Source: Microcaecilia unicolor
Taxonomy: Eukaryota
Direction: 5' to 3'
Assembly (NCBI RefSeq): GCF_901765095.1
Contig: NC_044034.1
Span: 62,626,339-62,690,338, forward strand
DNA length: 64,000 nt
Below the pieces are notes generated by a model, which made no database searches, was not told the DNA's origin, and saw only the letters and a list, made by a program, of their open reading frames with translations. How positions within the stretch are numbered: the first letter of the stretch is position 1; each line of letters starts with the position of its first letter. Both the position numbers and the translations under genes were made by a program. Of the stretch, positions 49-48,850 are shown one piece after another.

Positions 49-636
49 ATGCTCGTGGCCAAAATTCAGTCTTACCAGCTCTACACGAGCATACACATGC
101 GGAACAATGTGCGGCAGTTGGCGGGCTTGGTGGACAAGCTCCCTCCTGAGCAAGCCAAGCCATTTCAGGAGGTGGTCAGGCAGCTGAAGGCGTGCAGAAA
201 ATTCCTGGCCAGAGGGGTGTATGACACCTTTGATGTTGCGTCCAGGGCCGCTGCTCGAGGTGTGGTGATGTGCAGACTCTCATGGCTGCGTGCCTCCGAC
301 CTGGAGAATAGGATCCAGCAGCGGATTGCGGACTCGCCTTGCCGTGCGGATAATATTTTTGGAGAGAAGGTCGAACAGGTGGTAGAGCAGCTCCACCAGC
401 GGAATACCGCTTTCGACAAGTTCTCCCGCCAGCAGCCCTCAGCTTCTACCTCCACAGGTAGACGTTTTTATGGGGGAAGGAAGACTGTTCCCTACTCTTC
501 TGGCAAGCGTAGGTACAATCCTCTTTCTCAACAGCCTGCGGCCCAGGCTAAGGCCCAGCGCGCTCGCTCTCGTCAGCAGCGTGCGCCTCAGCAAGGCCCC
601 TCGGCTCCCCAGCAAAAGCAAGGGACGAGCTTTTGA
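49..636 (+). CDS. DIRS ORF1 (Gag-like), basic Q/R-rich C-terminus
   Basis: 195-aa ORF immediately upstream of and overlapping the pol ORF in a -1 arrangement. No recognisable zinc knuckle, so the call rests on position and composition only. Confidence 0.45.
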   Translation: MLVAKIQSYQLYTSIHMRNNVRQLAGLVDKLPPEQAKPFQEVVRQLKACRKFLARGVYDTFDVASRAAARGVVMCRLSWLRASDLENRIQQRIADSPCRADNIFGEKVEQVVEQLHQRNTAFDKFSRQQPSASTSTGRRFYGGRKTVPYSSGKRRYNPLSQQPAAQAKAQRARSRQQRAPQQGPSAPQQKQGTSF

Positions 637-2560: not shown

Positions 2561-2562
2561 AC

Positions 2563-3597
2563 TTTGCCTCTTTGGGTCTGTCAGAGGGTGTCTCCCGCAT
2601 CTTGCTTGCTTCCAGGAAAGATTCCACTAAGAGGAGTTACTTCTTTCTATGGAGGAGGTTTGCCGTCTGGTGTGACAGCAAGACCCTAGATCCTCGCTCT
2701 TGTCCTACACAGACCCTGCTTGAATACCTTCTGCACTTGTCTGAGTCTGGTCTCAAAACCAAATCTGTAAGGGTTCACCTTAGTGCAATCAGTGAATACC
2801 ATTACCGTGTGGAAGGTAAGCCGATCTCAGGACAGCCTTTAGTTGTTCGCTTCATGAGAGGTTTGCTTTTGTCAAAGCCCCCTGTCAAACCTCCTACAGT
2901 CTCATGGGATCTCAATGTCGTTCTCACCCAGCTGATGAAACCTCCTTTTGAGCCACTGAACTCCTGCCATCTGAAGTACTTGACCTGGAAGGTCATTTTC
3001 TTGGTGGCAGTTACTTCAGCTCGTAGAGTCAGTGAGCTTCAGGCCCTGGTAGCCCAGGCCCCTTGCACCAAATTTCATCATAACAGAGTAGTCCTCCGCA
3101 CTCACCCTAAGTTCTTGCCAAAGGTTGTGTCGGAGTTCCATCTGAACCAGTCAATTGTCTTGCCAACATTCTTTCCCCGTCCTCATTCCTGCCCTGCTGA
3201 ACGTCAGCTCCACACATTGGACTGCAAGAGAACATTGGCCTTCTATCTGGAGCGGACACAGCCCAACAGACAGTCCGCCCAATTGTTTGTTTCTTTTGAT
3301 CCCAACAGGAGGGGAGTGGCTGTGGGGAAATGCACCATATCCAATTGGCTAGCAGATTGCATTTCCTTCACTTACACCCAGGCTGGGCTGGCTCTTGAGG
3401 GTCATGTCACGGCTCATAATGTTAGAGCCATGGCAGCGTCGGTAGCCCACTTGAAGTCAGCCACTATTGAAGAGATTTGCAAAGCTGCGACGTGGTCATC
3501 TGTCCACACATTCACATCTCATTACTGCCTGCAGCAGGATACCCAACGCGACAGTCGGTTCGGGCAGTCAGTGCTTCAGAATCTGTTCGGGGTTTAG
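2563..3597 (+). CDS. DIRS tyrosine recombinase (phage-integrase-like YR domain)
   Basis: The frame of track ORF 1708..3597 continues directly after the pol stop. Motifs 'LSESGLKTKSVRVHLSAI', 'VAVTSARRVSEL' (Arg box) and 'HTFTSHY' (C-terminal His/Tyr region) are typical of DIRS/Ngaro YRs. The part of that ORF upstream of 2560 overlaps RNase H out of frame and is not considered coding. Confidence 0.7.
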   Translation, partial: FASLGLSEGVSRILLASRKDSTKRSYFFLWRRFAVWCDSKTLDPRSCPTQTLLEYLLHLSESGLKTKSVRVHLSAISEYHYRVEGKPISGQPLVVRFMRGLLLSKPPVKPPTVSWDLNVVLTQLMKPPFEPLNSCHLKYLTWKVIFLVAVTSARRVSELQALVAQAPCTKFHHNRVVLRTHPKFLPKVVSEFHLNQSIVLPTFFPRPHSCPAERQLHTLDCKRTLAFYLERTQPNRQSAQLFVSFDPNRRGVAVGKCTISNWLADCISFTYTQAGLALEGHVTAHNVRAMAASVAHLKSATIEEICKAATWSSVHTFTSHYCLQQDTQRDSRFGQSVLQNLFGV

Positions 3598-15240: not shown

Positions 15241-15339
15241 TAGTCGAAAAAGTCAGTCAAATTCGTCTGACACGAGAAGTTGGAGCAATGTTCCCTCTAA
15301 GGACTGACATTGACATGAGCAAAAATTTTATAAGTACAT

Positions 15340-15720
15340 AAGTAGTGCCATACTGGGAAAGACCAAAGGTCCATCTAGCCCAGCATCCTGTCACCGACAG
15401 TGGCCAATCCAGGTCAAGGGCACCTGGCACGCTCCCTAAACGTAAAAACATTCCAGACAAGTTATACCTAAAAATGCGGAATTTTTCCAAGTCCATTTAA
15501 TAGCGGTCCTGAACATGGGTCAGTCGGTCCTAAGAGATAGGCGAGCGCCGTTCGGAAGGGAATCTATCCTTTAGGAATCTATCTAACCCCTTTTTAAACT
15601 CCGTCAAGCTAACCGCCCGTACCACGTTCTCCGGCAACGAATTCCAGAGTCTAATTACACGTTGGGTGAAGAAAAATTTTCTCCGATTCGTTTTAAATTT
15701 ACCACACTGTAGCTTCAACT
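15340..15720 (-). mobile_element. CR1-like LINE 3' end fragment (C-terminus + 3'UTR)
   Basis: ORF 15530..15718 'MKLQCGKFKTNRRKFFFTQRVIRLWNSLPENVV...'. 3'UTR 'cataagtagtgccatactgggaaagaccaaaggtccatctagcccag' at 15340-15400. Confidence 0.55.
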
Positions 15721-16180
15721 CATGCCCTCTAGTCCTAGTATTTTTGGATAGCGTGTTACATTACATTGTGATCACTTCTTGCAGATAACACACACACATA
15801 AGTAAACATTCACAGGGAGGCTGAATAGAATTCCATGAGACACGCATTTCCCCCTGTACTATGCAAATATAAAGATAGAAGATACAAATTCCCAAAACTA
15901 ACAAATACAAATAAAACAAATGTGATGATACCATTGTATTGGACTAACTATATTTTCAATTAGCTTTCAGAGGCCAAAACCTCTTTCCTGTGGTCAGGAC
16001 AGTATACTGCTGTTATAGTATTCTGTTGTGATAAGAGAATGTATTAAAATTAGTCCAATAAATGTATCACCTTATTTCCTTATTTTGTATTAACACAGCT
16101 ACTACACTACGTTATCCTAAACTGAAAATAAAATTCATTTTTTCCATCTTCTGTTATTTGGCTGTTTACTTTTTCTAATA

Positions 16181-16400
16181 TTGTTGGTCCCAATCTCTTG
16201 TTTCTGGTTTCCTCATTGTTGTCTTAACTGTCACCAGTGTCTGCCCCCTTTGTCTCTCTTCCCCCTTTCCATCCATTGTCTCCCCCCCTCTCTCTTTCTC
16301 TCCCCTTCCTATCCATTGTCTGCGCTCTTTCTCTCTCTCTCTCCCTCACATCCTAGCGTCTGCCCTCTCTCACTCTCATTCTTTCCATCCCCCGCCCCAT
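16181..16400. repeat. CT-rich low-complexity tract
   Basis: 'ctctctttctctcccc...' composition. ORF 16181..16402 is a composition artefact. Confidence 0.55.
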
Positions 16401-16439
16401 AGTACTATTTGCTTTCATTTACTGTTTTATTATTTTTCT

Positions 16440-19400
16440 ATGCACTTTTACATAAGAACATAAGAGTAGCCATACTTGGTCAGACCAATGGTCCATCTAG
16501 ACCAGTATCCTGTTTCCAAATAGTGGCCAAGCCAGGTCACAAGTTCCTAGCAAAAATCAAATTAGTAGCAACATTCCATGCTACCAGTCCTGGGGCAAGC
16601 AGTTGCTTCTCCATGTCTGTCTGAATAGCAAACTATGGACTTTTTCTCCACGAACTTTTCCTAACCTTTTTTAAACCCAGATACGCTAACTGCTGTTACC
16701 ACAATCTTCAGCAAAGAGTTCAAGAGCTTAACTATACATTGAGTCAAAAAATATTTGCTCCTATTTGTTTTAAAAGTATTTCCATGTAACTTCCTTGAGT
16801 ATCCCCTAGTCTGTACTTTTGGAACGAGTAGAAAATCGTTTTCTACTCGTTCTACACCACTCAGGATTTTGTAGAGCTCAATCATATCTCCCCTCATCGG
16901 TCTCTTTTCCAAGCTGAAGAGCCCTAACCTCTTTAGCCATGCCTCATACATGAGGATTTCCATCCCCTTCATCATTATTGTCGCTCTTCTTTGAACCATT
17001 TCTAATTGTTATGCATAACTAAAATCTAAAATAAAGATATTAAAAGCTAAAAAACAAAACAAAACCATTTCTAATTCCTCTAAATCTTTTTTTGTGATAC
17101 GGTATCCAGAACTGAACACAGTACTCAAAGTGCAGTCGCACCATGGAGCAATACAGAGGCATTATAGTGTTTTTGGTCTTATTCACTATTCCTTTCCTAA
17201 TAGTTCCTAGCATCCTGTTTGTTTTTTTGGCTGCCACCACACACTGAGCAGACGATTTCAACTTATTATCTACGACGACACCTAGATCTTTTTCTTGAGT
17301 GCTGACACCCAAGGTGGACCCTTGCATCAAGAAACTATGATTCAGATTATACTTTCCAATGTGCATCACCTTGCATTTGTCCACATTAAATTTCATCTGC
17401 CATTTGGATGCCCAGTCTTCCAATTTCCTAAGATGTTCCTTCAGTGTTTCACAGTCCGCATGTATTTTAACAACCGTGAATAGTTTTTTATCATCTGCAA
17501 ATTTAATCACCTCACTTGTCCCAGTACTGATCCCTGTACCGATAGCACCAATCTCAGTACCGATCCTTGCGGAACTCCACTGGCCACCCTCCTCCTTTGA
17601 GAGAAATGACCATTTAAGCCTTCCCTCTGTTTTCCGTCCAATAACCAATTTCTAATCCACACCAGAACCTTGCCTCCTATCCCATGACTCTTTAATTTTC
17701 TCAGGAGTCTCTCATGAGGAACTTTATCAAAAGGTTTCTTAAAATCTAAATACTACATCAACCGGCTCACCTTTATCCACATGTTTATTTATGCCTTCAA
17801 AGAAATTAATCAAATTGGTGAGGCAAGACTTTCCTTGGCTGAAGCCATGCTGACTCTGTTCTAATTAAACCATATTTGTCTATGTGTTCGGTAATTTTAT
17901 TCTTTATAATAGTTTCCACTATTTTGACTGGCACTGACGTCAGGCATACCAGTCTGTAATTTCCCGGATCACCCCTAGAACCCTTAAAAAAAAAATTGGT
18001 GTCACATTGGTCACCCTCCGATCTTCAGATACTACAGATGATTTTAGTGACAGGTTACATATTACTAACAGCAGATCAGCAATTTCAAGCTTGAGTTCTT
18101 TGAGTAATCTTGGATGTATACCATCCGATCCAGGTGATTTACTACTCTTTAATTTGTCAGTACATCTTCCAGGTTCACTGAGACTTATTTCTCTGTATCA
18201 TCACCCTTGAAAACCATTTCCGGTACAGGCCGCTCTCTTATATCTTCTTCCTAAAGACAGAAGCAAAGAATTCATTCAGTTTCTCCTCCTTGGCCATGTC
18301 CTCCCTGAGTGCCCATTTTGCTCCTTTGTGATCTAACGGTCCCACAGATTGCCTCGCAGGCTTTCTTCTGATGTACCTAAAATAGTTGTTACTGTGAGTT
18401 TTAGCCTTTGCGGCAAGTTTCTCTTCATCTTCTCTTGTAGCCTTCTTTATTAATGCTTTGCATCTGACTTGCCAGTGCTTATGTTGCTTCTTATTTTCTT
18501 CATTTGGCCTCTTTTACTTCACCTTTTAAACAGGCTGGCTGTCGTTTTCTCTTCTTTCTACCTTAGCAAATACGTGGAATGCATCTGATCTGGGCTTCCA
18601 GGATGGTATTTTGAATAACATCCTTGCCTTATTTAGAGTCCTAACCTTAGCAGCTGATCCTTTTAATTTCTTTTTCCTCATTTTATTATAGTCGCTCATT
18701 CGAAAATTAAATGCATCTACAATAGATTTCCTTCGTGGGTTCATCCCAGATAGTAGCTCAAACTTGATAACATTATGATCACTGTTTCCCAGGCAGACCC
18801 AACATCGCCATCTCTCGCACTATGCCTTGCATGCCACCAAGGACCAGATCCAAAGTGGCTTACCCTCTTGTCAGTTCCTGGACCAGTTCTTCCTAGAAGC
18901 AGTCATTTATTACATCTAGAAATTTTATCTCCCTGGCACTCCCTGATGCAACGTAAATATTTCTTGGTATCTCTGTTCAATCCCAGTGGACAATAGTACA
19001 GGACAAGAATATTCCTTCCCTTCGCACATGGAATTTCTAGCCATAATGATTCCACGCTGCTATCTTTGTTATGTGGAATGGTTATTTTATATGACTCAAT
19101 TCCCTCTTTAACATATAGCACAACCCCCTTCCATTTTGATCCTCTCTGTCATTGCAATATATCATTTGTACCCTGTTAACACAGTGTCCCATTGATTGTC
19201 CTTTTTCCACTAAGTCTCTGAGATGCCTATTATATCTACCTCATCATTTAGTGCTATATACTCTTCCTTCTTATTTTTTAGGCTTCTAGCATTTGTATAC
19301 AGGCCCTTCATATTGTGTTTTTTCCTTTGATTTACAAGCTGCTTAGAAGTTGAAGGGGATAATTTGCATCCTTTATCCTGCTCTCTCATTAAACACACCT

Positions 19401-19500
19401 GGCTTACTTTCAGCACTGTTGAAACTTCTCTACTGGGATTCCCTAAATGTCCTGTTTCAATAGTATCCTTCAAGGATATTCCACACTGAACCATTTGCTC
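16440..19500 (-). mobile_element. CR1-like LINE, degraded near-full-length copy (EN start through 3'UTR)
   Basis: ORF 19210..19494 has the EN N-terminus '...NARSLKNKKEEYIALNDEVDIIGISET'. ORF 17040..17648 has RT motifs 'FADDKKLF' and 'MHIGKYNL'. ORF 16661..16999 has the C-terminus 'RGDMIELYKIL...KLHGNTFKTNRSKYFLTQ'. The 3'UTR at 16440-16660 is 'cataagaacataagagtagccatacttgg...'. Confidence 0.65.
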
Positions 19501-19855
19501 CTGGGCGACTGTCGGCTTTCCCCCGCATTGTAGTCTAAAAGCTGCTCTATCTCCTTTTTAAAGCGCCATCTCCATCCATGTTAAGGCAGAGGCCATCCTT
19601 TCGGAACAGTCTCCCCCTTTCCCAGAACGTTGCCCAGTTCCCAACAAATTTAAATCCCTCATCCCTGTGCCATCGTCTCAACCATACATTGAGACTTCGG
19701 AGCTGTGCCTGCCTTTTGGGTCCTGCATATGGAACAGGGAATATTTCTGAAAATGCAACCCTAGAGGTTCTTGATTTGAGCTTTCTAGCCAAGAGCCTAA
19801 ATTTGGCTTCCAGAACCTCTCTTCCACATTTTCATTTGAAGGAGTAAACAAACAT

Positions 19856-20930
19856 GTGGACAAAGGGGAACCGGTTGATATTGTGTATCTGGATTTTCAA
19901 AAGGCGTTTGACAAGGTACCTCATGAAAGGCTACAGAGGAAATTGGAGGGTCATGGGATAGGAGGAAATGTCCTATTGTGGATTAAAAACTGGTTGAAGG
20001 ATAGGAAACAGAGAGTGGGGTTAAATGGGCAGTATTCACAATGGAGAAGGGTAGTTAGTGGGGTTCCTCAGGGGTCTGTGCTAAGACAGCTGCTTTTTAA
20101 TATATTTATAAATGATTTGGAGATAGGAGTAACTAGCGAGGTAATTAAATTTGCTGATGACACAAAGTTATTCAAAGTTCTTAAATCGCGACAGGATTGT
20201 GAAAAATTACGAGACTGGGAGACTGGGCGGCTAAATGGCAGATGACGTTTAATGTGAGCAAGTGCAAGGTGATGCATGTGGGAAAAAAGAACCTGAATTA
20301 TAGCTACGTCATGCAAGGTTCCACGTTAGGAGTTACGGACCAAGAAAGGGATCTGGGTGTCGTCGTCGATAATACACTGAAACCTTCTGCTCAGTGTGCT
20401 GCTGCGGCTAGGAAAGCGAATAGAATGTTGGGTATTATTAGGAAAGGTATGGAAAACAGGTGTGAGGATGTTATAATGCCGTTGTATCACTCCATGCTGC
20501 GACCGCACCTTGAGTATTGTGTTCAATTCTGGTCGCCGCAACTCAAGAAAGATATAGTAGAATTGGAAAAGGTGCAGCGAAGGGTGACTAAAATGATAGC
20601 GGGGATGGGACGACTTCCCTATGAAGAAAGATTAAGGAGGTTAGGGCTATTCAGCTTGGAGAAGAGACGGCTGAGGGGAGACATGATAGAGGTACATAAA
20701 ATAATGAGTGGAGTGGAACAGGTGGATGTGAAGCGTCTGTTCACGCTTTCCAAAAATACTAGGACTAGGGGGCATGATATGAAACTACAGTGTAGTAAAT
20801 TTAAAACAAATCGGAGAAAATTTTTCTTCACCCAACGTATAATTAAACTCTGGAATTCGTTGCCGGAGAAAGTGGTGAAGGCCCAGTTCTTAAACTAATT
20901 GTGAAATTTTCTGGACAAAAAGAGTAGTCT
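19856..20930 (+). mobile_element. CR1-like LINE, 5'-truncated (RT through C-terminus), one frameshift
   Basis: ORF 19856..20245 has '[20 protein letters not shown]', '[16 protein letters not shown]' and 'FADDTKLF'. ORF 20242..20898 has 'KCKVMHVGKKN', '[13 protein letters not shown]', 'RGDMIEVHKIM' and 'RGHDMKLQCSKFKTNRRKFFFTQR'. Confidence 0.75.
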
Positions 20931-26599: not shown

Positions 26600-29500
26600 C
26601 TCAAAGGGAATTAATCCCTCGGGGATTCAAAGATTGTGTATGTGGCCCCCCAAATGGAGAGAAACCAGTCTCTACCTCTTGGAGACAAGCGTGCTCCCCT
26701 AGTTCCAATAACATGAGGTCATGAAACTTATTACACAAATGCCAGTAGTCCAGAGGCAAGTCTCTTTTCAAGAGGCTCAGAATGACACATTTGTCCAAAA
26801 TACAGGATTTACGAATAAGTTGTTGAGCATCTCTACCCTGCAATGCAAAGAGTTCATATTTATCCAAAAGAGTTCCAAGAGGGGAGATTGAAATGCCAAA
26901 TATTGAAAAATGGCAGTCCAAAACGCCTGTACAAAAAAAAAAAAACAATTCCGGAGAGAGAGTGAAAGAATGAGCCCGGAGTGCATTGACATTTTGAGCA
27001 TAAAGGCATATCCGTATCCCCAATTTTAAATATTTGAGCTTTGGAAAGGTATGTCCGATGCAATATCTGAAATTGGCACTCCCTTAGGTCTGCACTCACT
27101 GCCAAAGTGGGAATCCGGGAGGTCAAATTTAAGGAAATCCAAAGAAAGGTTGGGTCTACCCAAATCTTGTGCCCAGCGGAATCAAGTAGCCTCATTATCC
27201 TTTGGGGGGGGGGGGGGGAAGAGGGTCATAAATGCTTTATAAAGACCAGAAACTGAAAGCTTATCTCCCTTCACCAAAGTAAAAATGTTTCGCACATGGT
27301 GACTATACCAAGACCCTAGAGCTACAGCACTCAAGGAGCTGATATAGTGAGATAATTGGTTATATGCGTAAGCATTATTGATCTCTATGCCTATACCCAA
27401 CACCCCTAAACTCTGCAATGAACCCCTATCAGTCAGAACATGGTCTAATCTCTTTCTACACAGACATTCTGACGCCCGAAAAGTGCTATTTTCATTGCTG
27501 GGATAAACGACAGATTACCGCAAATCGGCAACAGATCTGACATATTTGGGTCAACACCTCAATACCTAATCATATCTCTCCAGATCTCCTGCAACGGACT
27601 CAGCAAAAAACTATTCTGAAAAGTCAAAGGAACAACATGCCTTGGGTTCTGTAACAAAAAATATAAATGTTAAGTTTTCACGGAAACAGTGGGTTTGTGA
27701 GCCCTTGGACCACTGCCGTGGAGCAGCAGTGGCAGGCAAAACCACCTTAAACCAGAGACAAGGCAGAACTCTGACAGGAACAGCTAGACTTCACCTGCAC
27801 TTGACCGCTATTCCCCAGGAGTTGAGCTCCTGGGTGCAGGTGGCCGGCAGGACTTACAGGACAGGAACCGGATACCAACAGGATACACACAGGGTCTAGA
27901 ATACACAAGGGAGGCAAGGTAGAATAGTAGACTAGGACTCTCAGACAAACACTACCACACTAGGTAGAAAGCAGGCAGGCTCAAGAACAAGGACTGAAAG
28001 CTGCCAAGCAGCCACTAAGAAAGAAACACAGACAGGTAAGAGTCAAGACTGAAAGCTGCCAAGCAGCCACTGAGAAAGAAACACAGACAACCAAGAACCA
28101 GACAAGGAATACAGACCAGAAACAAGACTAGAATACAAGCAACACAGACTAAGCTATAACCAGGCAAGGATTTCAGACAAGGAACTAAACTAGGCAAAAA
28201 TGCAACTGAGCACACCAACATACCCAGAGACCTTAGACGATGCAAAGGCAAACACATAAGTTTCCAGGAGGTTAATAAAGCCCATTGGCTGCTGAAGTTC
28301 AACTGCAGGAATCACCAGGCAACTACGGGTGCTGTTCAGGCACAAACAAGAAAAGCAAGTCTGACAGCCCGGAAGATCCGGACTGGACTGGGCTGAAGTC
28401 TGGAACGAGTGACAGTCCATAGCAGCCACCGGTTTTTGCCACCAGAGGGCGAGGTGAGCACAGACAAGGAAACAGTCACCACCATGACAATAAATTACAT
28501 GGAGCAAAATAGTCGATTTTTAACTGTCGTGAAGTATAATCCTGTTGATCCAAAAACCAATCGCCCAGGTGACAAAGCATGCAGGCTTGGTTATACCGTT
28601 GCAAATTGGGCAGTCCCATACCTCCCTCCCTCCAGGAGCCCATCATCTGTTGCAAGGGATTTTAGATTTTGTTCCTCCCCAGCAAAACCGCCCCAACAGT
28701 TTATGTAACAGTTTCAAGTCTTTTTTAAGTAGTCAAACTGGCAGTAGTTGCAGAATGTAGAGCCATCTTGGGTATTCGAGCATATGAAATAACTGAATTC
28801 TACCATGTAGCATGAGTGGCAAGGCCATCCATTCCTTCAAATGCCCAGCTGTTGCCTCCAACAAGTGCAAGATATTTTAGATACCTGCATAGAAAGCAGT
28901 ATACCTAAATAAGGAAAGGAATTTCGTACCTGTTGAATTGGGAAGTTAGGCCCCACATTAACTCCTCCCTAGACGCCAATTCCAGGGACTTAGTGAATCC
29001 AGCAAAATCACCAAATTCTTGAAACAGTTCTAACAGCGCGGACAAGGACTTCATAGACTCTGTATTATGGACCAGCATATTATGGCTGTATTATGGCTGA
29101 GATAATGAACTTAGAATTAACAATTGGGACTCCAGAGATTTCTGAATGCTGAGCCACCTCCTGAATGAGATTGTCCAGAGATAACACAGATAAGAAGGGT
29201 GACAATGGATATCCCTGTCGAGTAATGATGATGACCCAAAGGTACCATTGTTTTGTCTCATTTCTTATGCTTTTTAGTAGCATGTTCTTGTCCGTTACAG
29301 TTAGCATTCATGTCTGCTATACCTCTTCTCTGAAATATTGACCACAACCTTGTATGTGTTTTTGCAGAGGTTGCACTATGCAGATTTTCTTCATTAGTCT
29401 CACATTAATTGCTGATCATTTTTCTTTCTTTCTTTCTTTTTTTTTAATAGCTGGTCAGCATTTTCAGTTACTGTTGCTCCAGCATCAAAACAGTAGCTAG

Positions 29501-31000
29501 CAGAACTTCCATTTTATAGGTGTCTTCAGTCTGTATGTGTATCTGGAGTAGTAAGTCTAAGTATTAATCACAGTTCATAATGTAGCACAGCCTGCCTCTC
29601 TCTTTTTTTTTTTTCTGGATAATCTGCCTTAAAAGGAGTTCTGTTGTCTTTCAGTGCTCATTTTTATTGCTAATTTAAAATTTCTCTGTTTCTACCTGGT
29701 TTCTGTTAGTCTTGTCTAGACTTTCATTCACTAACTTTGAATGAAGTCTAGAAGCTTAGTGCAGGAGTAGTTCAGTTAAGACTGGAGTATTTTTTTCACG
29801 GAGAGATTGGTGGATGCTTGGAATGCTCTCTCGCGGGAGGTGGTGGAGAGGAAAACGGTAACGGAATTCAAACATGCGTGGGATAAACATAAAGGAATCC
29901 TGTTCCGAGGGAATGGATCCTCAGAAGCTTAGCCGAGATTGGGTGGTGGGAGGCGGGGATAGTGCTAGGCAGACTTATACGGTCTGTGCCAGAGCCGGTG
30001 GTTGGGAGGCAAGGATAGTGCTGGGCAGACTTATACTGTCTTGTGCCCTGAAAATGACAGATACAAATCAAGGTAAGGTATACACAAAAAGTAGCACATA
30101 TGAATTTATTTTGTTGGGCAGACTAGATGGACCATGCAGGTCTTTTTCTGCCGTCATCTACTATGTTACTATGTTACCTCTATGAATATGGAACTGCCTG
30201 GAGCGCTGTCCATTGACCCACATGAATGCCTGCGGGTCAGAATAGAGGATCCAAATCGTATCCCCCAAAGAAAACCTCCATCCCATTTCACCACATTACC
30301 ACAAAAAGAAAAGGCTAGATCACCAATTGGATGCCTTCGCATCAAAACTGAAAAGGAGAGAAATCATCCAACTTCCAGATACCACCTCCAGGGAAGCCAA
30401 AATAGATTGAATATTTTTAACTGCCACCTGTCCCTTCACAAACCCCACCTGGGCTGTATCAGTCAGGTCTGGGAGTACATGCGATAATCTATTAGCTAGA
30501 ATTTTGTTATATAACTTTACCTCAGCGTTTAAGAGATTTATGTGCTGATATAAGCTTAGGTCCTCCGGATCTTTGTTCAATTTTAACACAATTATCTGAG
30601 CTGTCTTTAAAGAGTCCAGAAGGGTCCCCTCAGCGACCATCGAGTTGAACAAATAAAGCAAAGGGGGGGATTTCACCCACTCATAAAACTTTTTTTTTTT
30701 TTTTAAATAGAACTCCACACCGTCCGGGCCTGGAGTCTTATGCATTGCACTTTGCTGCAAAGCCAACAAAAGGTTTCCCTCTGTAAAAGGCATGCTCAAA
30801 AATTCATGCTGGCGAGGGGAAAGCTGAGGAAGATTTAAATTGTCTAGATATAACTCAGTATCCAAAACTCCCCAAATCCTCAGGTGCTGCATAAAGAGCC
30901 TATCTAGCCCAGTATATGAGTTGAAGCCAGTAGGTGGAACTTGCCACCATTTTCCTTCACCCAAAACAATAGCAAACGCTATTGAAAAGATTGCCAAATA
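26600..31000 (-). mobile_element. L1/Tx1-like LINE, degraded (RT N-terminal region at 30320-30997, ORF2 C-terminal Cys-rich domain at 26601-27195), with nested insertions
   Basis: ORF 30320..30997 has 'PGPDGVEFYLKK', 'LLYLFNSM', 'AQIIVLKLNKDPEDLSLYQHINLLNAEVKLYNKILANRL' and 'QVGFVKGQ' (L1 RT boxes). ORF 26860..27195 has 'ECQFQILHRTYLSKAQIFKIGDTDMPLCSKCQ' (L1 ORF2 C-terminal domain). Confidence 0.6.
29770..30180 (+). mobile_element. CR1 3' end (ORF2 C-terminus + 3'UTR) nested inside the minus-strand L1
   Basis: Translation 'FFTERVVDAWNALSREVVERKTVTEFKHAWDKHKGIL'. 3'UTR 'ggcagacttatacggtctgtgcc...gggcagactagatggaccatgcaggtctttttctgccgtcatctactatgttactatgtta'. Confidence 0.6.
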
Positions 31001-31390
31001 TTATTAGAAATAACGGACTGCTGGGGGCGCTGTGGAGCTACCGATGAGAATAGACGCTTGAAGATCTCTCTCCCCTGTTTTTGCTAGAATATTGATCCAA
31101 ACTATCAGTTGGAATCCTTTTTCCTCTATCTTTGTCTAAAGTAAATCTACTCTCATAATGTCTTTAAATCGTCTAAGCTGGATTCTCACAGTCTACCACA
31201 GGCTGGATCTAAGCGAACTAAAACTGATTCGCCAACACCGGAAAAGGCCGCACAAACTAGGTTACCGCCTTCCTTATCGGATATCATCATGGAAGAAATG
31301 CAAGCTCTAAAAAGGTGGGAAAATGTGGGATACAAATGCAATAAATAAATAAAAGAGCTCACGACTAAACACTTTCAAACGACTTGTGAT

Positions 31391-31906
31391 TTGAAATTGG
31401 ACCTACAATCCCTTACATCTGCCTTAACAGTGTTTCAGATCCATGTTGAGACCTTGGAAACATGTGCAGATCAATCTGCTCTGACTATGGTGCAACAATA
31501 TGAAAAAACAGATCAAGATCTCCGCAAACTAGAACTAGAGATTGAAGATCTCTCTAATAGGAACAGGAGAAACAACACTAGAATTATTGGCTTAAAAGAA
31601 GGTGCAGAAGGATCTGATGTCATACAATTTCTTATCACATGGCTTCCACAGATTCTACATATCAAGACTGACCTCCCGCTACAGTTCAAAAGAGCTCACA
31701 GATCGCCGTCGCATCGTAAACAAGGCCTTCAACACCCAAGGCTGATTATTGCAAAACTTCTTCACTTTCAGCAGGCAATACAAATTTTGACAGCGGCTCG
31801 ACCAGCCAAAGATCTTCAATTTGACGGGAAACGACTTTTGATCCAGATTTGGCCAAAACTACCGCTAGGAAATGGAAAGCTTTTTTGGATACGAGACCGT
31901 ACGTAA
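31391..31906 (+). mobile_element. L1/Tx1-like ORF1p (Transposase_22-type) coding region
   Basis: 'LEIEDLSNRNRRNNTRIIGLKEGAEG' and 'AHRSP...PRLIIAKLLHFQQAIQILTAARPAKDLQFDGKRLLI' are the hallmark L1 ORF1p RRM/CTD motifs. Confidence 0.65.
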
Positions 31907-33149
31907 AATCTTTGGGCGCTAGGTATGGTTTACAGTATCCTGATCGTATGCAAGTAACTGTCACGTTCCCTGTCTGTGCAGAGTGTGGGCACCGGAGGAT
32001 CGGACGGCCATCTTGTATTTGGGCTTGTTCCAGGTTTGGGCGGCCATCTTAGTAGGGGGCAGCTTAGGTTATGGCAGCCATCTTGGAGTGGGGCAGCTTC
32101 AGGAAGGAAGCCCATATTTGGGTGTAGGGTGTCACCGATGGGGGCAGCCATCTTGATTTCAGCTGTGCTTGTTTGGGCCTAATTTCTACTCTATTTCTGC
32201 CCTCAGTCCTTCCGTTCTTCGGCTTCTACTCAGTTTGCTAGATAGTTGCAGTGCTTTTTGGATCTACGGTTGTCGGCTGCCTGGTACTGACCTGTGCCTG
32301 TCCCTGGATCTGCTACTGACTGCTGCCTGGTACTGACCTGTGCCTGTCCCTGGATCTGCTACTGACCGCTGCCTGGTACTGACCTCTGCCGGTTGCTAGA
32401 TCTGCTGTTCCCTGCTGCCTGGTCTAACCCTGTGGACTTTGTGCTGGACTTTGTTCTTTCTGCTGTTGGCTACACGCACTCAGGGGCTCAACCTCTGGGG
32501 AACGGTGGGTGACACAGGGGGAACTCGGGGTTTTGACAGACAGCCCGGTGAGGGGTTTCCCTCGAGTACAAGGGCTCACCTCTCCTTGTGGAAAGCATTA
32601 CAGTAACTATGCATAATACTACCAAATGTTTTCACTCTCCTGATCAATTGCATCAATATCTTGATCAACTTCAATCTCATGTCATGGCTCCTTGTCTTCT
32701 CACCAGACCAATAAGGGTGTCTGCTTTTTGTATAAAGCCTTTTCAATAGGCTTTCATTTGTTCTAATATGATATTAACTATGTTATAAGGTTAATTACTT
32801 TAGATCATACTGTGTTCTCATGCTGTTACCACAGTTTTGACTTAAATATGTAAGTTTATATTAATATTGCTATAGAGGGGTTTTTTTTCTATTTGTACCA
32901 TACTAATGGTTTGGTCAACCTATGTCACTTTTTTTTTAATCAAGATATACAGGGTTGTCTTTGAGTGTCACCCTATCTCTACTCTCATTCTCACTTATCT
33001 CGGGTTCATTTCTTTGGTTGAACTAATTTCTTAGTTCTTTATGCCGTTTCTCTCTGTTATATGTCAGGTATGCATAATGTTTCTCAATCAAAATTACCTG
33101 CCTATTTTTTGTAATGGACTATGTGCTATGTATCCATTTCTTCCTATAT

Positions 33150-33700
33150 ACTATGATTAACATAGTGACTTGGACTGTAAATGGTTTAAGTCACCCTATA
33201 AAACACAAGGAGGTACTTATATATCTTAAAAAACTTAAACCAGGAATAATGTTTTTTTACAAGAAACTCATTCTCCCAATACTTTACCACTTATTAAGCA
33301 ATGTAACTGGATTTCATCCTCTATAGATTCTCCTTCTATTGATAGGAAACATGGAGTTTCAATATTGTTTCATAAAGATGTTAATCCAACTATTTTAGAA
33401 TGTATTATTGACCCTAATGGTAGATGGATAAATGTCAAGGTATCTATACATATCTATCTATAAATAATGTTTCAGTATTGTTAGTAAATTTATATGCCCC
33501 AAATATTGACTCTCCTGATTTTTTCTCCAACCTTTTTCAAACAATACAGTCGCTGGAATTTATTCCGATTATTATGTCAGGGGACTTTAACATTCCTTTG
33601 GATTATTATCTTGACAGACGTTCCCAAATTAAGGTGTCACATTCTAAATCGTCTTATCACTTTACATTTGTTATGATTGGGGTCAGAACCCCTCTCAAAC
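33150..33700 (+). mobile_element. L1-like ORF2 N-terminal endonuclease fragment (frameshifted)
   Basis: 'MINIVTWTVNGLSHPIKHKEVLIYLKKLKP', '...FLQETHS-like', 'GRWINVK', 'LVNLYAPN' and 'IMSGDFNIPLD'. Confidence 0.5.
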
Positions 33701-34960
33701 TTACCTCTTTCCTGGGGGTCAGCTTCTTAGCTGGCTTCTGTTTCTTTTCTCTGTCCTTTCTGAGCTGGCTCTGTCTCTCTGTGCTGGCAGCTTCCAGCAG
33801 CATGGGGTTAATTGTCTCACTTCACTGCAGCTGTGGGTGTGGTCTGAGTTGCTCTACCTCTCCCTAGGTGTACTGGCTTCAAGAGCTTCTCGGTGCTGCA
33901 TTGATATGGGTTGGGCCTCTTGGGGTTTGAATGTGTTCTGCCTGGCTCTAGGGAGAGTGACATCATCTGGGAGGGCCTTGATAAGGAAGTGGGTTCTTTC
34001 CTTCAGGGCCTTCGCAACGTTTGCTTCTGGCTACTTGCTTTAGGTCCAGGTTAGTTTAGTGCAGTGTGCACTTGTGACTTGTGTGTTTGACTTCCCTGTT
34101 TTTCCCTTTGGCTCCTCTGCTTTCCCTTTTGTTACGGTGAGTAGCACTGCTGTTAGTGCAGTGCTGGAGCTTGATGCTGGGAGCACCCTTGTTAGTAAGT
34201 ACTTAGGAAGCACCTTTTGTTGTTTGGGGATTTGGCTTTCCTGCTTGTTTCCTTGTGTCTTCCCCGCTTTTCCTTGTGACCTGTGTTTAGCTGCTGTAGC
34301 TTGGTGCTTAGGAAGCACCGGGGTGAGAACCCGTGTTTAGCTGCTGCAACTTGGTGCTTAGGAAGCACCAGTGTTAGGTCTGGCATTTGTCTTCCCTTCC
34401 TTTTCCCTTGTGGCTTCCCTGCACTTCTGTTAGTGTAGGGCGTAGGGGCACCCCTGTTAGTTTCTGTTAGGAGCACTGCTGTTAGTGGAGGGCTTAGGAG
34501 CTTTTCTGTTGGTGCTGGGCTTAGGAACACTTTTGGTCACTTTAGGAGTTAGGTGCACTTCAGTTACAGCTTGTTCTAGTCCTGGTCCCTGTGTCGTCCA
34601 GTAAGTCCTGCCGGCTACTCGAACCCAGGAGCTCAACTCCTGGGGGGCTTAGTAGCTAAGTGCAGGTGAAGCTGTGTGGACCAGTCCAGTGTTCCAGTCC
34701 TGTGTCCTCCAGTCCGGGGGATTTCAGTCCAGTGTTCCAGTCCGGGGGATTCCAGTTCAGTGTTCCGGTCCGGTGTTCCAGTCCTGTGTCCTCCAGTCCG
34801 GGGGATTCCAGTCCAGTGTTCCAGTCCGGGGGATTCCAGTCCAGTATTCCAGTCCGGTGTTCCAGTCCTGTGTCCTCCAGTCTGGGGAATTCCAGTCCAG
34901 TGTTCCAGTCCGTGTGTTCCAGCTCGCTGGGCGGTGCCTGCAGTCCCTGCCGGTGTCGGT
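33700..34960. repeat. block of tandem repeats ('cttaggaagcacc' ~50-bp units at 34290-34390, ~60-bp 'ccagtccagtgttccagtccgggggattccagt' units at 34680-34940)
   Basis: Direct tandem periodicity seen in sequence. Overlapping ORFs 34633-35123 on both strands are artefacts. Confidence 0.6.
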
Positions 34961-35480
34961 GTGCTTGCCCAGCGTTGGTTGGTGGGTTTTGCCTGCTGCT
35001 GTCGCTCCTCGTCAGCAGCCCAAGGGCTCACGTTTGCTCCAGAGCCTGGCCCCATGGGCTCTGAACCTGAGAACCTGGCAACATTCTTTTATAGATCAAT
35101 TACATCTCATTGATCCTCATTGATCTCCCTCCTCCTTCCCCAGGGCCGTGCCTAGGGTCTCTGGCGCCCCCTGCAGACCATCAGTTGGTGCCCCCCTGCG
35201 CCCCCCCCCCCGGACCTGCCTGGCTCCAAGGCGCATGGAAGAGCTGGGCGGTGCCAAAGAGCTGAGCGTTGCTCCCCCAAACTGCCGTCTGGGGCGCAGT
35301 GGAGGAAATGGCTAGGTTTGGCATACTTCTCATTCAGCCTGAGCCTCCTCTGCTCCATCTCCGATTTCCCGGCGCTTTAAATTTACCTCTCTCCGCCTCC
35401 GACATCTGCGCAGCGTCAGTGAAAGCGCTGCCTGTCTGACGTCTCTCCACCAGCCTTCCCTTCGCTCGTTCGTTTACTCT

Positions 35481-35496
35481 GTGCCCCGCCTTCTTC
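35481..35496. repeat. target-site duplication, left copy ('gtgccccgccttcttc')
   Basis: Identical 16-mer at 37051-37066, immediately flanking the A-tailed insertion. Confidence 0.7.
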
Positions 35497-37050
35497 TTTT
35501 TTTTATTATTATTTTTATTGAATTTACAATTTTACAAGCATACACTTGAATCAAGCAATATCGAGCTAATATTTTTCCAATCATAATATTTGAACAATTA
35601 AAGAAAGGAATTAATATAAAGAATTTCCTAAATTATTCCAGGTATTACTTAAAGTAAATATAGCTCAGCCTCAGACCACTATTAATAGTAGAGGGCTGTA
35701 AAAATAATAGGAGAACAAAAAGAAGCATTTATTTATAGGAAATATGGCCTGGTCAATTGCACATCGTTTCTCATTAATACAACTTACGATGGAAATTTAT
35801 TTGGTTAAACTTTTCTGATCCAGGAAAAATTTGAGCTGATCAGGCTCGATGAAGACATACTTATTATTCATATAATAAACAATACATTTGCAAGGATATG
35901 TCAACATGAACTTTGCTCCTATAGCTTTAGTCCTTTCTCTTAAAGCCAAGAATAATTTTTGTCTGTCCTGAGTTGTTTTAGTCACATCAGGATATATCCA
36001 TATCCTGGCCCCACAGAAAAAAGTCAAAGCATTTTTAAAGTACATTTTCATCAGGGAATTCAAGTCCTGTTCGAAGACAAATGAAACCAGGACAGATCTT
36101 CGAGTCTTTATATCTGATAGTGACTGTTCTAAAATTGTAGAAATATCCAGGGGTTCTTTCTCTTGTTCTTGCTCTAAAGAAACTACATTTTTCTCATCTT
36201 CCACTGATTTTATTGAATTTGGTAAGTAATAAATCTTATTAATTGGAGGCAACAAGGAAGATGAGTAATGAAGTATTTCAATGAGGTATTTCTTAAAAAG
36301 TTCAAGAGTGGAGATTCCAGAAACAACTGGGAAATTCAGTATTCTCAGATTCAATCTCCTATTATAATTTTCAATCTGATCAATTTTTCGGTTTATTATC
36401 ATATTATCTTTCATCACTGCTGTTGTCATTGATTTGAAATTTATTAAGTCCGTTTGGACCTGAGATATTTGAGATGTCGAGTCACTTTTCAACTGTTCAA
36501 ACGCAGTAGATAAGGAGTCAAGTTTACTCACTATTGAAGCAGTCTCTAAAGCTGTCTTCCTCGAAGCCAAAGTCAGTTCTTGAATCGCTTCCCAAATCAA
36601 TTCCAACGTCACCACCTGGGGAACTTTCCGTTCCCAGCTTGTTGTCTCAGCTTCTCGGGGCCAGCTACCGCCGAACGAGGAGTCGTGATCGCCGGTTTTC
36701 GCGGCTCCTTCAGCTCACCCTTTTCAAAAGCTGGTCGCGGTGGAGGGTTGATTTCTGGCGGAGACAAAGATGTTTCAAACCCTTGGGGCGTCGATGCTCC
36801 TTCATCGGCGGCCCCTGCAGGGGTTACCACGCCAGCTTCCGGTGCTCGACTCGTTGTGAAGCGGTCTATCGTTAGCTGTACCGGTGAAGATGTAAGACTC
36901 ATCGACGGTTGAATTCTTACCAGACCTTTTCTCTTGGTATGTGGCATTATTTCATTTGTATAATTTCAAAAAGATTAAGAGACCAGCCAAACGCGACCTG
37001 ATCACACACGAGTCGTGACCGCCATTTTGACACGCCCCCCTGTAAAAGGT
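35497..37050 (-). mobile_element. ORF1-only L1-derived retroposed unit (HAL1-like): short 5'UTR, L1 ORF1p-like ORF with one frameshift, 3'UTR, A-rich tail
   Basis: ORFs 36609..36947 and 35797..36615 have a coiled-coil region plus 'ENYNRRLNLRILNFP...' (L1 ORF1p RRM motif). The A-rich 3' tail reads 'ttttttttattattatttttatt' on the plus strand at 35497-35520. A 16-bp target-site duplication flanks the unit. Confidence 0.6.
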
Positions 37051-37066
37051 GTGCCCCGCCTTCTTC
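37051..37066. repeat. target-site duplication, right copy ('gtgccccgccttcttc')
   Basis: Identical to 35481-35496. Confidence 0.7.
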
Positions 37067-38212
37067 TGACATCATTTCCTTGAGGGTGGGACACAGAGGG
37101 AACAAATGAGCGAAGGGAAGGCTGGTGTAGAGACGTCAAACAGGCAGCGCTTTCACTGACGCGCAGATGTCGGAGGCGGAGCGAGGTAAATTTAAAGCGC
37201 CGGGGAATCGGGGATGGAGCGGAGGAGTAAGGTTTTTTTTTAAAAATACAACTCGATGGCGCGGCGCCCTTGAAGGCAGGCGCCCCCCTGCGGCACTTAC
37301 CGTGTTGGCACAGCCCTATCCTTCCCCATCCATCATTCCTCTCATTCTTCCTGCCTGCCTGCCTCCCTCCCTGTCCATGTGGTCTAGCATCTCTTCCTCT
37401 TTCCCCCTCTCTCCTTCACTTGGAGGTCCATCAATTCTCTGTTTCTTCCCTTGGGTCCATTAATTCTCCCTCTCTCCCTCCATTCCCCCCCCCCCCCCTT
37501 TTAATGCACCTCTCCCTATCTCCCGGGGTACTTGTTGCTTGCTTGGAGCTTCTGTACTGCTGTGACTCCCCCCCCTCCATATAAATGGGAAGTCGCATCA
37601 GAGGAGTGGGTTGTGGCAGAGGAGAGGCTCTGAGCAGGCCTCAAGCAGCATATGGCAAGTGCTGCCACTGCCGGGGACCCCCTGAGAGACACAGTGTAAG
37701 ATAGACTGAGGGGGGAAGCTGGATTGTAGAAGAGACAGGGAGAAATGCTGGGTGGAGAGGAGATAATAGCATGGTGGAAATACTAGTCCCTCAGACACTG
37801 CCCTGTTGCCCAAGTGGTCATTTTGTCCCCTGATGCATGGTAACTTTTTCTTTATAAAAATCATTGCTTTTCATTTTTCCTCCTAAATTTTTTATTTCCC
37901 ACCATATTGTGGACTGAGAGAGTATTATATCTGGATTGTTTTTTGTTTTATTTATCTTACAGATTTTCTTTTTCTTTTTTTCTCTCATTTCTGCATCAAG
38001 ATTTTTGCTTGTAAAATTTTCATTATACTACATAAATAAAAAAAAATTATTATATGTAACCATTTCAAAATTAATTTTCAAGACTCCGCTTGATACAGAA
38101 ATACATTGGGAAAAAAAACACATTTTTTTTTTACGTGAGAGAAAATCATGTATTTGACAAGGAGCCATAAAGAATTTGATCCTTTTTAAAAATAACATTT
38201 AATATAACTCTT

Positions 38213-48087: not shown

Positions 48088-48850
48088 ATGACACTATGTA
48101 CAGGAGCAGTCGCTGAAAGCTCTGCTCCGTGTACCTCCGGCAAATTCCATTCTTTTAAACCCCAAAATCGGCGGTTGCAGAACGCATTGGACCGAGATAA
48201 CAACTCTCTGCTCTGCGGTGAAAGAAATCAAGTCGAGAAGCGGCTTATGGCAGCAAAAAACTTGCGCAAAGACAAAGAAAAAAGTAAGGCGCTGGAAGAA
48301 AAGATGGCGGCGCCAGCCAGCCCGTCGGCCTCCGCGGTTGGATCGGCATGGGCAGCCGAAATCGTGGGTGAGATCACAGTGGCTATGAAAACGATCTTGG
48401 ATCAGAAACTACAAGGGCTGGACACAAAGCTGGAGGGATTGCAGACCAATATGATACAGCTGAGACACGACCTTACAGCTTACCAGCAACGGACTGGGAA
48501 ACTTGAGGACCAGGTGACGGCAGTTGAAAAAAATTACTCTAAGCTGCAGAAACTTGTTGAAGCACAAGCGGAGAAGATAGAAGACCTTGAAAACAGGTCA
48601 CGACGTAACAACCTCAGATTTGTTGGCCTTCCGGAGGACCTGGTGGACCGAGAACTTGGGCTTTTTTAGAGACTTGGCTGGCCAAAGAACTTAATCTTCC
48701 CCAGGAAATGGGACCCTTAATCATTGAACGGGCACACCGCATAGGGCCGCTGAGGCCTGAAGCTACTAGACCACGTGTGGTGATTTGTCAGCTGTTAAAC
48801 TTTGCCCAAAAAGTTAAAATCATACCATACCTTAATTCACCATGGGAGAT
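48088..48850 (+). mobile_element. L1-like ORF1p (Transposase_22-type) fragment with frameshift
   Basis: ORF 48088..48669 has a coiled-coil region plus 'LENRSRRNNLRFVGLPE'. Downstream in another frame it reads 'ERAHRIGPLRPEATRPRVVICQLLNFAQKVKII' (ORF1p C-terminal domain). Confidence 0.6.

Follow-up and report, generated by a model that had tools for sequence, protein, structure and literature searches.

Why would an L1-type first open reading frame (ORF1) stand alone, with no ORF2 behind it, at the centre of a long palindrome in a caecilian genome? The question is raised by a retroposed unit on the minus strand of a 64,000-nucleotide stretch of Microcaecilia unicolor DNA (NCBI RefSeq assembly GCF_901765095.1, contig NC_044034.1, positions 62,626,339 to 62,690,338). 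This whole stretch is the window below, and its coordinates are used throughout. The original prediction for this locus offered two identities: a HAL1-like "half-L1" element, or a retrocopy of an ORF1-derived host transcript comparable to mammalian L1TD1. Homology to L1 ORF1p, a poly(A) tail, a target-site duplication (TSD), a T-rich nick site and relatives that likewise carry only ORF1 support the first option. We therefore put at roughly three in four the probability that a non-autonomous, HAL1-like, ORF1-only derivative of LINE-1 (L1) inserted here recently, one that belongs to a diversified family for which our searches returned caecilian members only.

Anatomy of the insertion

The insert occupies 35498-37049 on the minus strand (1552 bp) and lies between perfect 18-bp direct repeats. 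The repeated sequence, TGTGCCCCGCCTTCTTCT, occurs in exactly two copies in the window, and 0/100 shuffles gave a match. Its last base in the 35480-35497 copy is ambiguous and could equally be a base of the A tail. An insertion of 1554 bp at 35497-37050 with a perfect 16-bp TSD had been predicted; exact repeat comparison upholds the insertion and the perfection of the duplication while moving the limits slightly inward and lengthening the duplication to 18 bp. We found no homology beyond the 18 bp on either side. Because the outer sequences are unrelated, the two 18-mers are a TSD and not the edges of a longer repeat, an alternative that the original prediction had itself named and that we reject. 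The features of the unit are as follows.

35498-37049, minus strand: whole retroposed ORF1-only unit, comprising 5′ untranslated region (5′UTR), ORF1, 3′UTR and A-rich tail, bounded by the 18-bp direct repeats
37050-37067, no strand: TSD on the 5′ side of the element, TGTGCCCCGCCTTCTTCT on the plus strand, from the two exact copies and the shuffles
35480-35497, no strand: TSD on the 3′ side of the element, from the same evidence
36948-37049, minus strand: 5′UTR of 102 nt, with a G-rich start and YY1-box-like CAAAATGGCGG, core AAAATGGC at 37021-37028
36612-36947, minus strand: N-terminal part of ORF1 in frame A, 112 codons, starting MPHTKRKG, with an ETSLSPP motif, predicted disordered, 57% GC
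36612-36714, minus strand: interval open in both frames that holds the frameshift, a mutation or an assembly indel
35797-36615, minus strand: main part of ORF1 in frame B, 272 codons and a stop, with coiled coil, RRM and C-terminal domain (CTD)
36361-36606, minus strand: coiled-coil helix, amino acids 115-196 of the repaired protein, from the AlphaFold model (predicted local distance difference test, pLDDT, >94 for amino acids 120-245)
36019-36351, minus strand: RRM-like domain, amino acids ~200-310, from the AlphaFold model, Foldseek and the family alignment
36328-36372, minus strand: family signature ENYNRRLNLRILNFP, spanning the coiled-coil/RRM junction, from the family alignment
35800-36000, minus strand: CTD (WIYPDVTKTTQDRQK...YPCKC...), where the best match of a family-only profile in the PDB is the mouse L1 ORF1p CTD
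35514-35796, minus strand: 3′UTR of 283 nt, 26% GC, ending in AATAAA (35514-35519), with no ORF2 remnant
35498-35513, minus strand: A-rich tail AATAATAATAAAAAAA, then A

ORF1 runs from an ATG at 36947 to a stop at 35797-35799, giving 383 codons without in-frame stops once a single +/-1 frameshift is repaired: frame A is open to 36612 and frame B is open from 36714. A full-length ORF1p-like frame with one frameshift had been anticipated, and it holds, although the shift can be placed within the interval 36612-36714 rather than near 36610. The leader expected at ~100 nt measures 102 nt, and the 3′UTR expected at ~290 nt measures 283 nt, with its own AATAAA and the A-rich tail. The predicted lack of ORF2 was borne out as well, since tblastx found no remnant of it in the insert and 1552 bp leaves no space for it.

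In GC content the insert is unlike its GC-rich surroundings (25-38% over most of its length, 57% in its 5′ third). The step is sharp and lies inside the element, between the sequence coding for the disordered N-terminus at 36600-36950 (57%) and the remaining ORF and 3′UTR sequence at 35500-36500 (25-38%). Also within the unit is a 19-nt direct repeat, 84% identical, GAGTCGTGA(T/C)CGCC..., at 36680-36698 in the N-terminal coding sequence and at 37010-37028 in the YY1-like region of the leader; it may be due to chance.

The protein and its caecilian relatives

A first search with the window protein returned four full-length relatives at 30-41% identity, all of them caecilian. A family profile (A1) built from the first relatives and run against 1.84 billion representative proteins gave 643 matches that grade from this family into canonical L1 proteins. 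Matches with E < ~1e-30 are proteins of 300-440 amino acids that share the N-terminus MP(H)(T)KRKG and an SLSP motif, together with LENxxRxxNLRLLNFP, FPDxxKxTQxRRKxFL and YPCKC. The matches between E 1e-11 and 1e-16 are canonical L1 ORF1p of fish, frogs and coelacanth with the motifs ENRSRRxNxRxxGxPE and YPAKLRV, some of them labelled by their source databases as L1 RRM-domain or LINE-1 type transposase proteins. A further word-indexed protein search with the family profile returned nothing new. Pfam scans of both ORF halves, the repaired protein and relatives yielded weak coiled-coil noise and nothing else, with no match for the relatives P0005, P0007 and P0010; even the more distant canonical-type proteins reached E ~5e-3 at best against the Pfam L1 ORF1p models, below threshold.

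Structural comparisons point the same way. Against the PDB, a shallow five-sequence alignment retrieved coiled coils only, a caecilian-only profile (A3) had the mouse L1 ORF1p CTD (2jrb) as its best match (E 0.0023), and a wider alignment matched human ORF1p at E 7e-33. Aligned by hhalign to residues 215-309 of human ORF1p, the register was sensible at a probability of only 9%. An initial AlphaFold run on five sequences was too uncertain (pLDDT 54) and was superseded by one guided by a 128-sequence alignment that included canonical ORF1p sequences. The resulting model (mdcc8512e8512) has a pLDDT of 80 overall and >94 in its folded parts, and consists of an 80-residue helix, an RRM-like domain and a small alpha/beta CTD. 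When this model was compared with the PDB by Foldseek, the ten best matches were all human L1 ORF1p, namely nine trimer chains and the RRM-CTD solution structure (E 8.6e-11 to 2.2e-7, target template-modelling score 0.48-0.75). The iterated profile search and the predicted fold thus make a solid case that the window protein is homologous to L1 ORF1p, and the model has the coiled coil and the RRM noted at the outset.

The protein resembles canonical L1 ORF1p (human PDB 2ykp/2yko; mouse CTD 2jrb) in its disordered N-terminus, long coiled coil, RRM and CTD, and the caecilian family and canonical proteins have in common the motifs E-N-x-x-R-x-x-N-[LI]-R and [FY]PD...YP[AC]K. It is nonetheless only 13-15% identical to human ORF1p. 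The caecilian family reads LLNFP where canonical proteins read GxPE and YPCKC where they read YPAKL, has its own MPHTKRKG N-terminus, and has no ORF2 downstream.

The 30 close relatives that have a source name are all from Rhinatrema bivittatum, Geotrypetes seraphini or M. unicolor, most under the label "uncharacterized protein LOC...". Several NCBI models built on family ORFs appear to be mis-named (proteasome assembly chaperone 1 X1, mitochondrial peptide chain release factor 1 X2, PKI-gamma X1), and an apparently chimeric model fuses a family member to a VWD-domain protein. Mis-named or chimeric models of this sort are seen among the database proteins P0002, P0009, P0036, P0034 and P0118, the last being a canonical-type L1 ORF1p match outside the close family that is fused to a LAP2alpha domain.

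We examined eight Rhinatrema loci from separate lineages (L001-L008). The coding sequence is single-exon in every one, and AATAAA and an A tail of 7-20 nt follow 220-320 nt past the ORF1 stop in 8/8. None has an ORF2; had related copies run on into one, the window copy would, by the original prediction, have been a deleted L1. The ORF1-only layout is the rule of the family, not an accident of the window copy. TSDs of 14-18 bp flank 7/8 loci, five of them perfect (L001, 14 bp; L003, 16; L004, 16; L006, 17; L008, 15) and two with one mismatch (L002, 15 bp; L005, 18). Between lineages the 3′UTRs are unrelated except in their final 25-45 nt, where the poly(A) signal lies. In sense orientation 6/7 TSDs start A-rich, which places a pyrimidine-rich run 5′ of the first-strand nick. 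Such a run matches the degenerate TTTT/A pattern expected of the L1 endonuclease. Inferred nick sites are TTTT/C, GCTT/A, TTTA/A, TCTT/A, TTTC/A and TCCT/G in six relatives and TTCT/G in the window, all seven being pyrimidine-rich 5′ of the nick and continuing with C in L001 and a purine in the other six.

Two kinds of 5′UTR occur in the family, short with a YY1-box-like motif or long with tandem monomers. Five loci (L001, L002, L004, L006, L008) have two or three tandem monomers of 130-200 bp with TGACGTCA and TATAAAG-like boxes, and L003 resembles them in its long leader (458 nt), which contains two short repeats and a single GCTGACGTCATC box. Leaders of ~100 nt are found in L005, L007 and the window copy, and in these a G-rich start precedes CCAAGATGGCCG (CAAAATGGCGG in the window); the start GGGGCGT..CCAAGATGGCCG lies at 5903-5935 in L007 and 9889-9912 in L005, and its counterpart at 37019-37035 (minus strand) in the window. 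The distance of this motif from the 5′ end is close to that seen in human L1. End-to-end alignment of the window leader with the leaders of L007 and L005 indicates that the window copy is full-length rather than 5′-truncated, apart from ~10 extra bases at the 5′ junction. These bases (CCTTTTACA, 37040-37049, minus strand) lie between the 5′ TSD and the G-rich start shared with L007, and possibly stem from initiation a little upstream in the source locus or from filler DNA. Slightly further downstream L005 and L007 also share AGCAGCTCCCG. Among the long leaders, a splice-donor-like (A/C/G)(A/G)GTGAGT(A/G) lies 35-105 nt upstream of the ATG in four (L001 ~9940, L002 ~9893, L004 ~9955, L008 ~5965), and could be a U1-binding site or mark a real 5′UTR intron.

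In a neighbour-joining tree (266 columns, 100 bootstraps) the caecilian proteins form a single clade (100%) whose sister is coelacanth L1 ORF1p (81%), while the L1 ORF1p of other vertebrates falls outside. The window protein clusters with two Geotrypetes sequences and one Microcaecilia sequence (100%), each ~40% identical to it. This clade is sister to a Rhinatrema-only clade (85%), and a second Geotrypetes/Microcaecilia clade and additional Rhinatrema clades are present. By this topology several lineages appear to predate the basal caecilian split. The nearest non-caecilian relatives, two Latimeria L1 ORF1p annotated in UniRef as 'L1 transposable element RRM domain-containing protein' (P0039/P0050; E 3e-26 and 8e-18 in the profile search), lack both the MPHTKRKG N-terminus and the NFP signature of the caecilian family.

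Alternative identities and the palindromic target

The least credible account is that the window copy is a one-off L1 that lost ORF2 by internal deletion at or after insertion. L1 fragments are abundant in the window and L1 copies are often rearranged, but here a dedicated 3′UTR of ~280 nt with its own AATAAA and tail follows the ORF1 stop within the TSDs, the same ORF1-only layout recurs in 8/8 relatives from separate lineages, and tblastx detects no ORF2 remnant. The account is already largely refuted, and we consider it scarcely tenable. Better placed, though still unlikely, is the view that the family consists of host genes domesticated from ORF1 and since expanded (L1TD1-like, perhaps fast-evolving antagonists of L1), whose spread through retroposition left the window copy as a processed pseudogene. 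It would fit with the more than 30 intact members that NCBI lists as protein-coding loci, some with several transcript isoforms, with the one or two members per 90%-identity cluster, with the retention of the N-terminal motifs MPHTKRKG and SLSP across roughly the whole caecilian tree, and with a window copy that is frameshifted, as a dead retrocopy would be. However, the structure that would mark an L1TD1-like gene (introns, no TSD, no poly(A)) is not the one seen in the window copy and the Rhinatrema loci. Every examined locus is itself a retrocopy with poly(A), 7/8 have near-perfect TSDs, and an intron-bearing parent was not seen among them. Recent insertion in lineages less than 50% identical would further need many independent, continuously active sources, each lineage has a LINE-style 5′UTR (tandem monomers or a YY1 box), and the proteins have a single RRM and CTD. 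In L1TD1 the RRM-CTD arrangement is duplicated. The L1TD1-like option of the original prediction is accordingly disfavoured, while co-option of individual family members as host genes is possible.

The reading that we prefer, an ORF1-only L1 derivative that behaves as a transposable element, has evidence against it too. The 1552-bp unit is single-copy within the 64-kb window, and each annotated relative is alone in its 90%-identity protein cluster, so that lineages may have few copies each. The relatives are treated as genes by NCBI, in some cases with several isoforms. The window protein and four relatives have no match at E<=10 to Pfam Transposase_22 (PF02994) or to the trimerisation or C-terminal models. 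The closest annotated protein is just 40% identical, and the link to L1 ORF1p comes from iterated profile searching and from a model built with canonical ORF1p in its alignment. Mobilization in trans by L1 ORF2p is presumed, and the leader is a putative internal promoter by its motifs only. What favours a transposable element is the combination of depth and recency. The lineages are less than 50% identical to each other in protein, yet the examined copies have near-perfect TSDs (the window copy and 7/8 Rhinatrema loci) and clean A tails, and for this reason each lineage appears to have kept retroposing as a transposable element does. Old lineages with recent insertions are the mark of a transposable element family with many concurrently active sources, not of one gene shedding pseudogenes.

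The target of the window insertion is itself an inverted repeat, with the following parts.

35345-35493, plus strand: left arm of the pre-existing palindrome, overlapping the TSD by 14 nt, from inverted-repeat alignment
37082-37227, plus strand: right arm, reverse complement of the left, 133/149 identical
37068-37081, no strand: right 14 nt of an 18-nt hairpin loop whose other 4 nt are 35494-35497, from folding of the rebuilt empty site

The arms are 89% identical (133/149, one 3-nt gap). An inverted-repeat target with the insertion at its hairpin centre had been predicted and is upheld, with arms of ~149 nt in place of ~170. When the insert and one TSD copy are removed, the site folds as one hairpin (-164.6 kcal/mol, DNA parameters) whose loop, TTCTGACATCATTTCCTT, is 18 nt long. 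On the plus strand the first-strand nick is at CTTCTTCT^GACATC, 4 nt into this loop, and the TSD includes the last 14 nt of the left stem. Because removing the insert restores a continuous palindrome, the palindrome is older than the insertion. We rely on this continuity for the order of events because a comparison of divergences was ambiguous: arm identity is 89%, the TSD copies agree at 18/18 positions, and the probability of seeing no difference in 18 bp at 11% divergence is ~0.12.

Could the palindrome have mattered, either because a cruciform or hairpin loop drew the nick or because arms and insert form one composite foldback unit? Such a role would suit the position of the nick, 4 nt into the 18-nt loop of a 149-bp stem of predicted -164.6 kcal/mol, and the arms directly adjoin the TSDs. 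But this is one event, and for an insertion that hits the ~316-bp palindrome at all, landing within +/-10 bp of its centre has a ~6% chance, itself a post hoc figure. Six other insertion sites of the family have no flanking palindrome, and TTCT/GA is an ordinary L1-type nick motif. The restored continuity identifies the arms as target and not as element, and no second copy of them exists in the window or in the eight Rhinatrema loci. We regard a role for the palindrome as very improbable; the hit near its centre, a single case, is most likely coincidence.

A relationship of the arms to the 5′UTR monomers of the family was ruled out, as blastn gave no match, and Rfam has no RNA family in or around the palindrome. 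From the centre outward each arm contains GACGTCA, TGACG and TTTAAAG, arranged much as in a promoter. A foldback or MITE-type DNA element would be expected to recur as copies with their own TSD, and in the window and the eight loci this palindrome is the only one of its kind. Outside the arms, near 35143 and 37316, two 11-nt sequences, AGGGCCGTGCC / GGCACAGCCCT, make an imperfect inverted pair that could be due to chance; each is next to 'ccttcccc'.

Other repeats surround the locus. A repeat bearing a variable number tandem repeat at 34596-35031 belongs to a separate repeat family and ends before the palindrome. Its tandem array (34681-34925) has an 84-bp period, 93% identity and ATTCCAGTCC-like subunits, and the unique flanks of the array (34596-34671, 34985-35031) recur inverted at 27697-27862 (minus strand) without the expansion. 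A DIRS-like retroelement at 470-3597 (plus strand) has an intact 696-amino-acid reverse transcriptase/RNase H ORF and an overlapping tyrosine-recombinase-like ORF of 629 amino acids; the best database relatives of the DIRS-like ORF are 48-50% identical (turtle, Pleurodeles), many with a Pfam LAP2alpha domain. CR1-like repeats at about 15300-20900 in the window recur at 71-81% identity in the Rhinatrema loci, and the Rhinatrema copy L002 sits in the reverse-transcriptase region of an older CR1/L2-like LINE (L002 11340-11990).

Proposed mobilization and history of the family

As an ORF1-only L1 derivative, the element would be mobilized in four steps. RNA polymerase II would transcribe it from its own short 5′UTR, with the YY1-box-like CAAAATGGCGG ~20 nt from the 5′ end, and the transcript would be polyadenylated at its own AATAAA. 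The translated L1-type ORF1p, which by homology and predicted fold is probably trimeric, would then coat its own RNA. An element that has neither endonuclease nor reverse transcriptase would presumably borrow ORF2p in trans from an autonomous L1 of the same genome. The last step can be read from the insertion site itself: the plus strand was nicked by the endonuclease at CTTCTTCT^GA, reverse transcription on the poly(A) was primed by the T-rich end, and a second nick 18 bp away gave the 18-bp TSD. The copy now has its one frameshift, unless this is an assembly indel.

No partner L1 is obvious among the L1 fragments in the window. The canonical fragments, all interrupted, lie at 31349-32746 and 33078-33640 (plus strand), 48088-48669 (plus strand) and 30323-31000 (minus strand), and comprise two ORF1 types (NRNRRNNTRIIGLKEG, ENRSRRNNLRFVGLPE), one endonuclease and one reverse-transcriptase fragment. 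As had been noted from the sequence, the ORF1 of the insert differs markedly from the other two ORF1 regions of the window, to which it has only weak tblastn matches (E 3e-4 and 3e-3). The window holds at least two other ORF1 types, at 31349-31903 and 48088-48669, both with canonical NRxRRNN motifs, in agreement with the multiple L1 lineages known from non-mammalian vertebrates (PMC5381506).

Among known systems the closest parallel is HAL1 (half-L1) of mammals. Passages of PMC5753468, citing Smit 1999 and Bao and Jurka 2010, describe these elements as non-autonomous L1 derivatives encoding ORF1p only, and the same passages report that HAL1s arose independently several times. The window element is of HAL1 type by definition: it encodes an L1-type ORF1p with coiled coil, RRM and CTD, contains no ORF2, and has the insertion hallmarks of L1, with poly(A), a TSD in the variable 7-20-bp range and a T-rich/purine nick site. 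With mammalian HAL1 it shares ORF1p as sole product, poly(A) tail, L1-type TSDs and presumed use of L1 ORF2p in trans, and one more independent origin would fit the HAL1 pattern of repeated origins. It differs in its amphibian host, in an ORF1p too divergent for Pfam Transposase_22, in forming a monophyletic family of many deep lineages (<50% identity), some common to Rhinatrematidae and other caecilians, and in having two different 5′UTR types, putative promoters by their motifs. L1TD1, a domesticated L1 ORF1 gene of mammals (PMC4161310), likewise has L1 ORF1-type domains without ORF2, and the caecilian relatives are annotated, as it is, as ordinary genes. Unlike L1TD1, the caecilian members are intronless retrocopies, with TSDs in the window copy and 7/8 Rhinatrema loci and poly(A) in all, and they form many lineages rather than one syntenic gene, each with a single RRM-CTD unit and a LINE-like 5′UTR. 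No description of ORF1-only L1 derivatives in amphibians was found in the searchable literature, a scope to which repeat libraries (Repbase, Dfam) do not belong, and the caecilian genome paper does not mention them.

By itself the window insertion is otherwise an ordinary transposable element insertion. Its interest lies in the family. A monophyletic ORF1-only family with many lineages in three caecilian families would extend the half-L1 phenomenon beyond mammals and would suggest that ORF1-only elements can persist and diversify for very long. It bears on an open question, namely why ORF1p is needed by L1 and in what way non-autonomous RNAs compete for ORF2p. For caecilian genomes there is a practical side: dozens of "uncharacterized protein" genes in current annotations are in fact these elements, at times joined to host gene models, and counts of caecilian-specific gene families are inflated because of this.

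One possibility, which we advance tentatively and would rate at somewhat under even odds, is that the MPHTKRKG family is a single ancient ORF1-only radiation, already diverse before Rhinatrematidae split off and persisting without its own ORF2 as a hyperparasite of L1, with a few members maybe co-opted. If so, the family would be a long-lived, protein-coding L1 hyperparasite with promoters and a divergent ORF1p that it has kept as its own. ORF1p in cis would then suffice to sustain a non-autonomous lineage over deep time, and caecilians would offer a natural system for learning what ORF1p adds to the capture of ORF2p.

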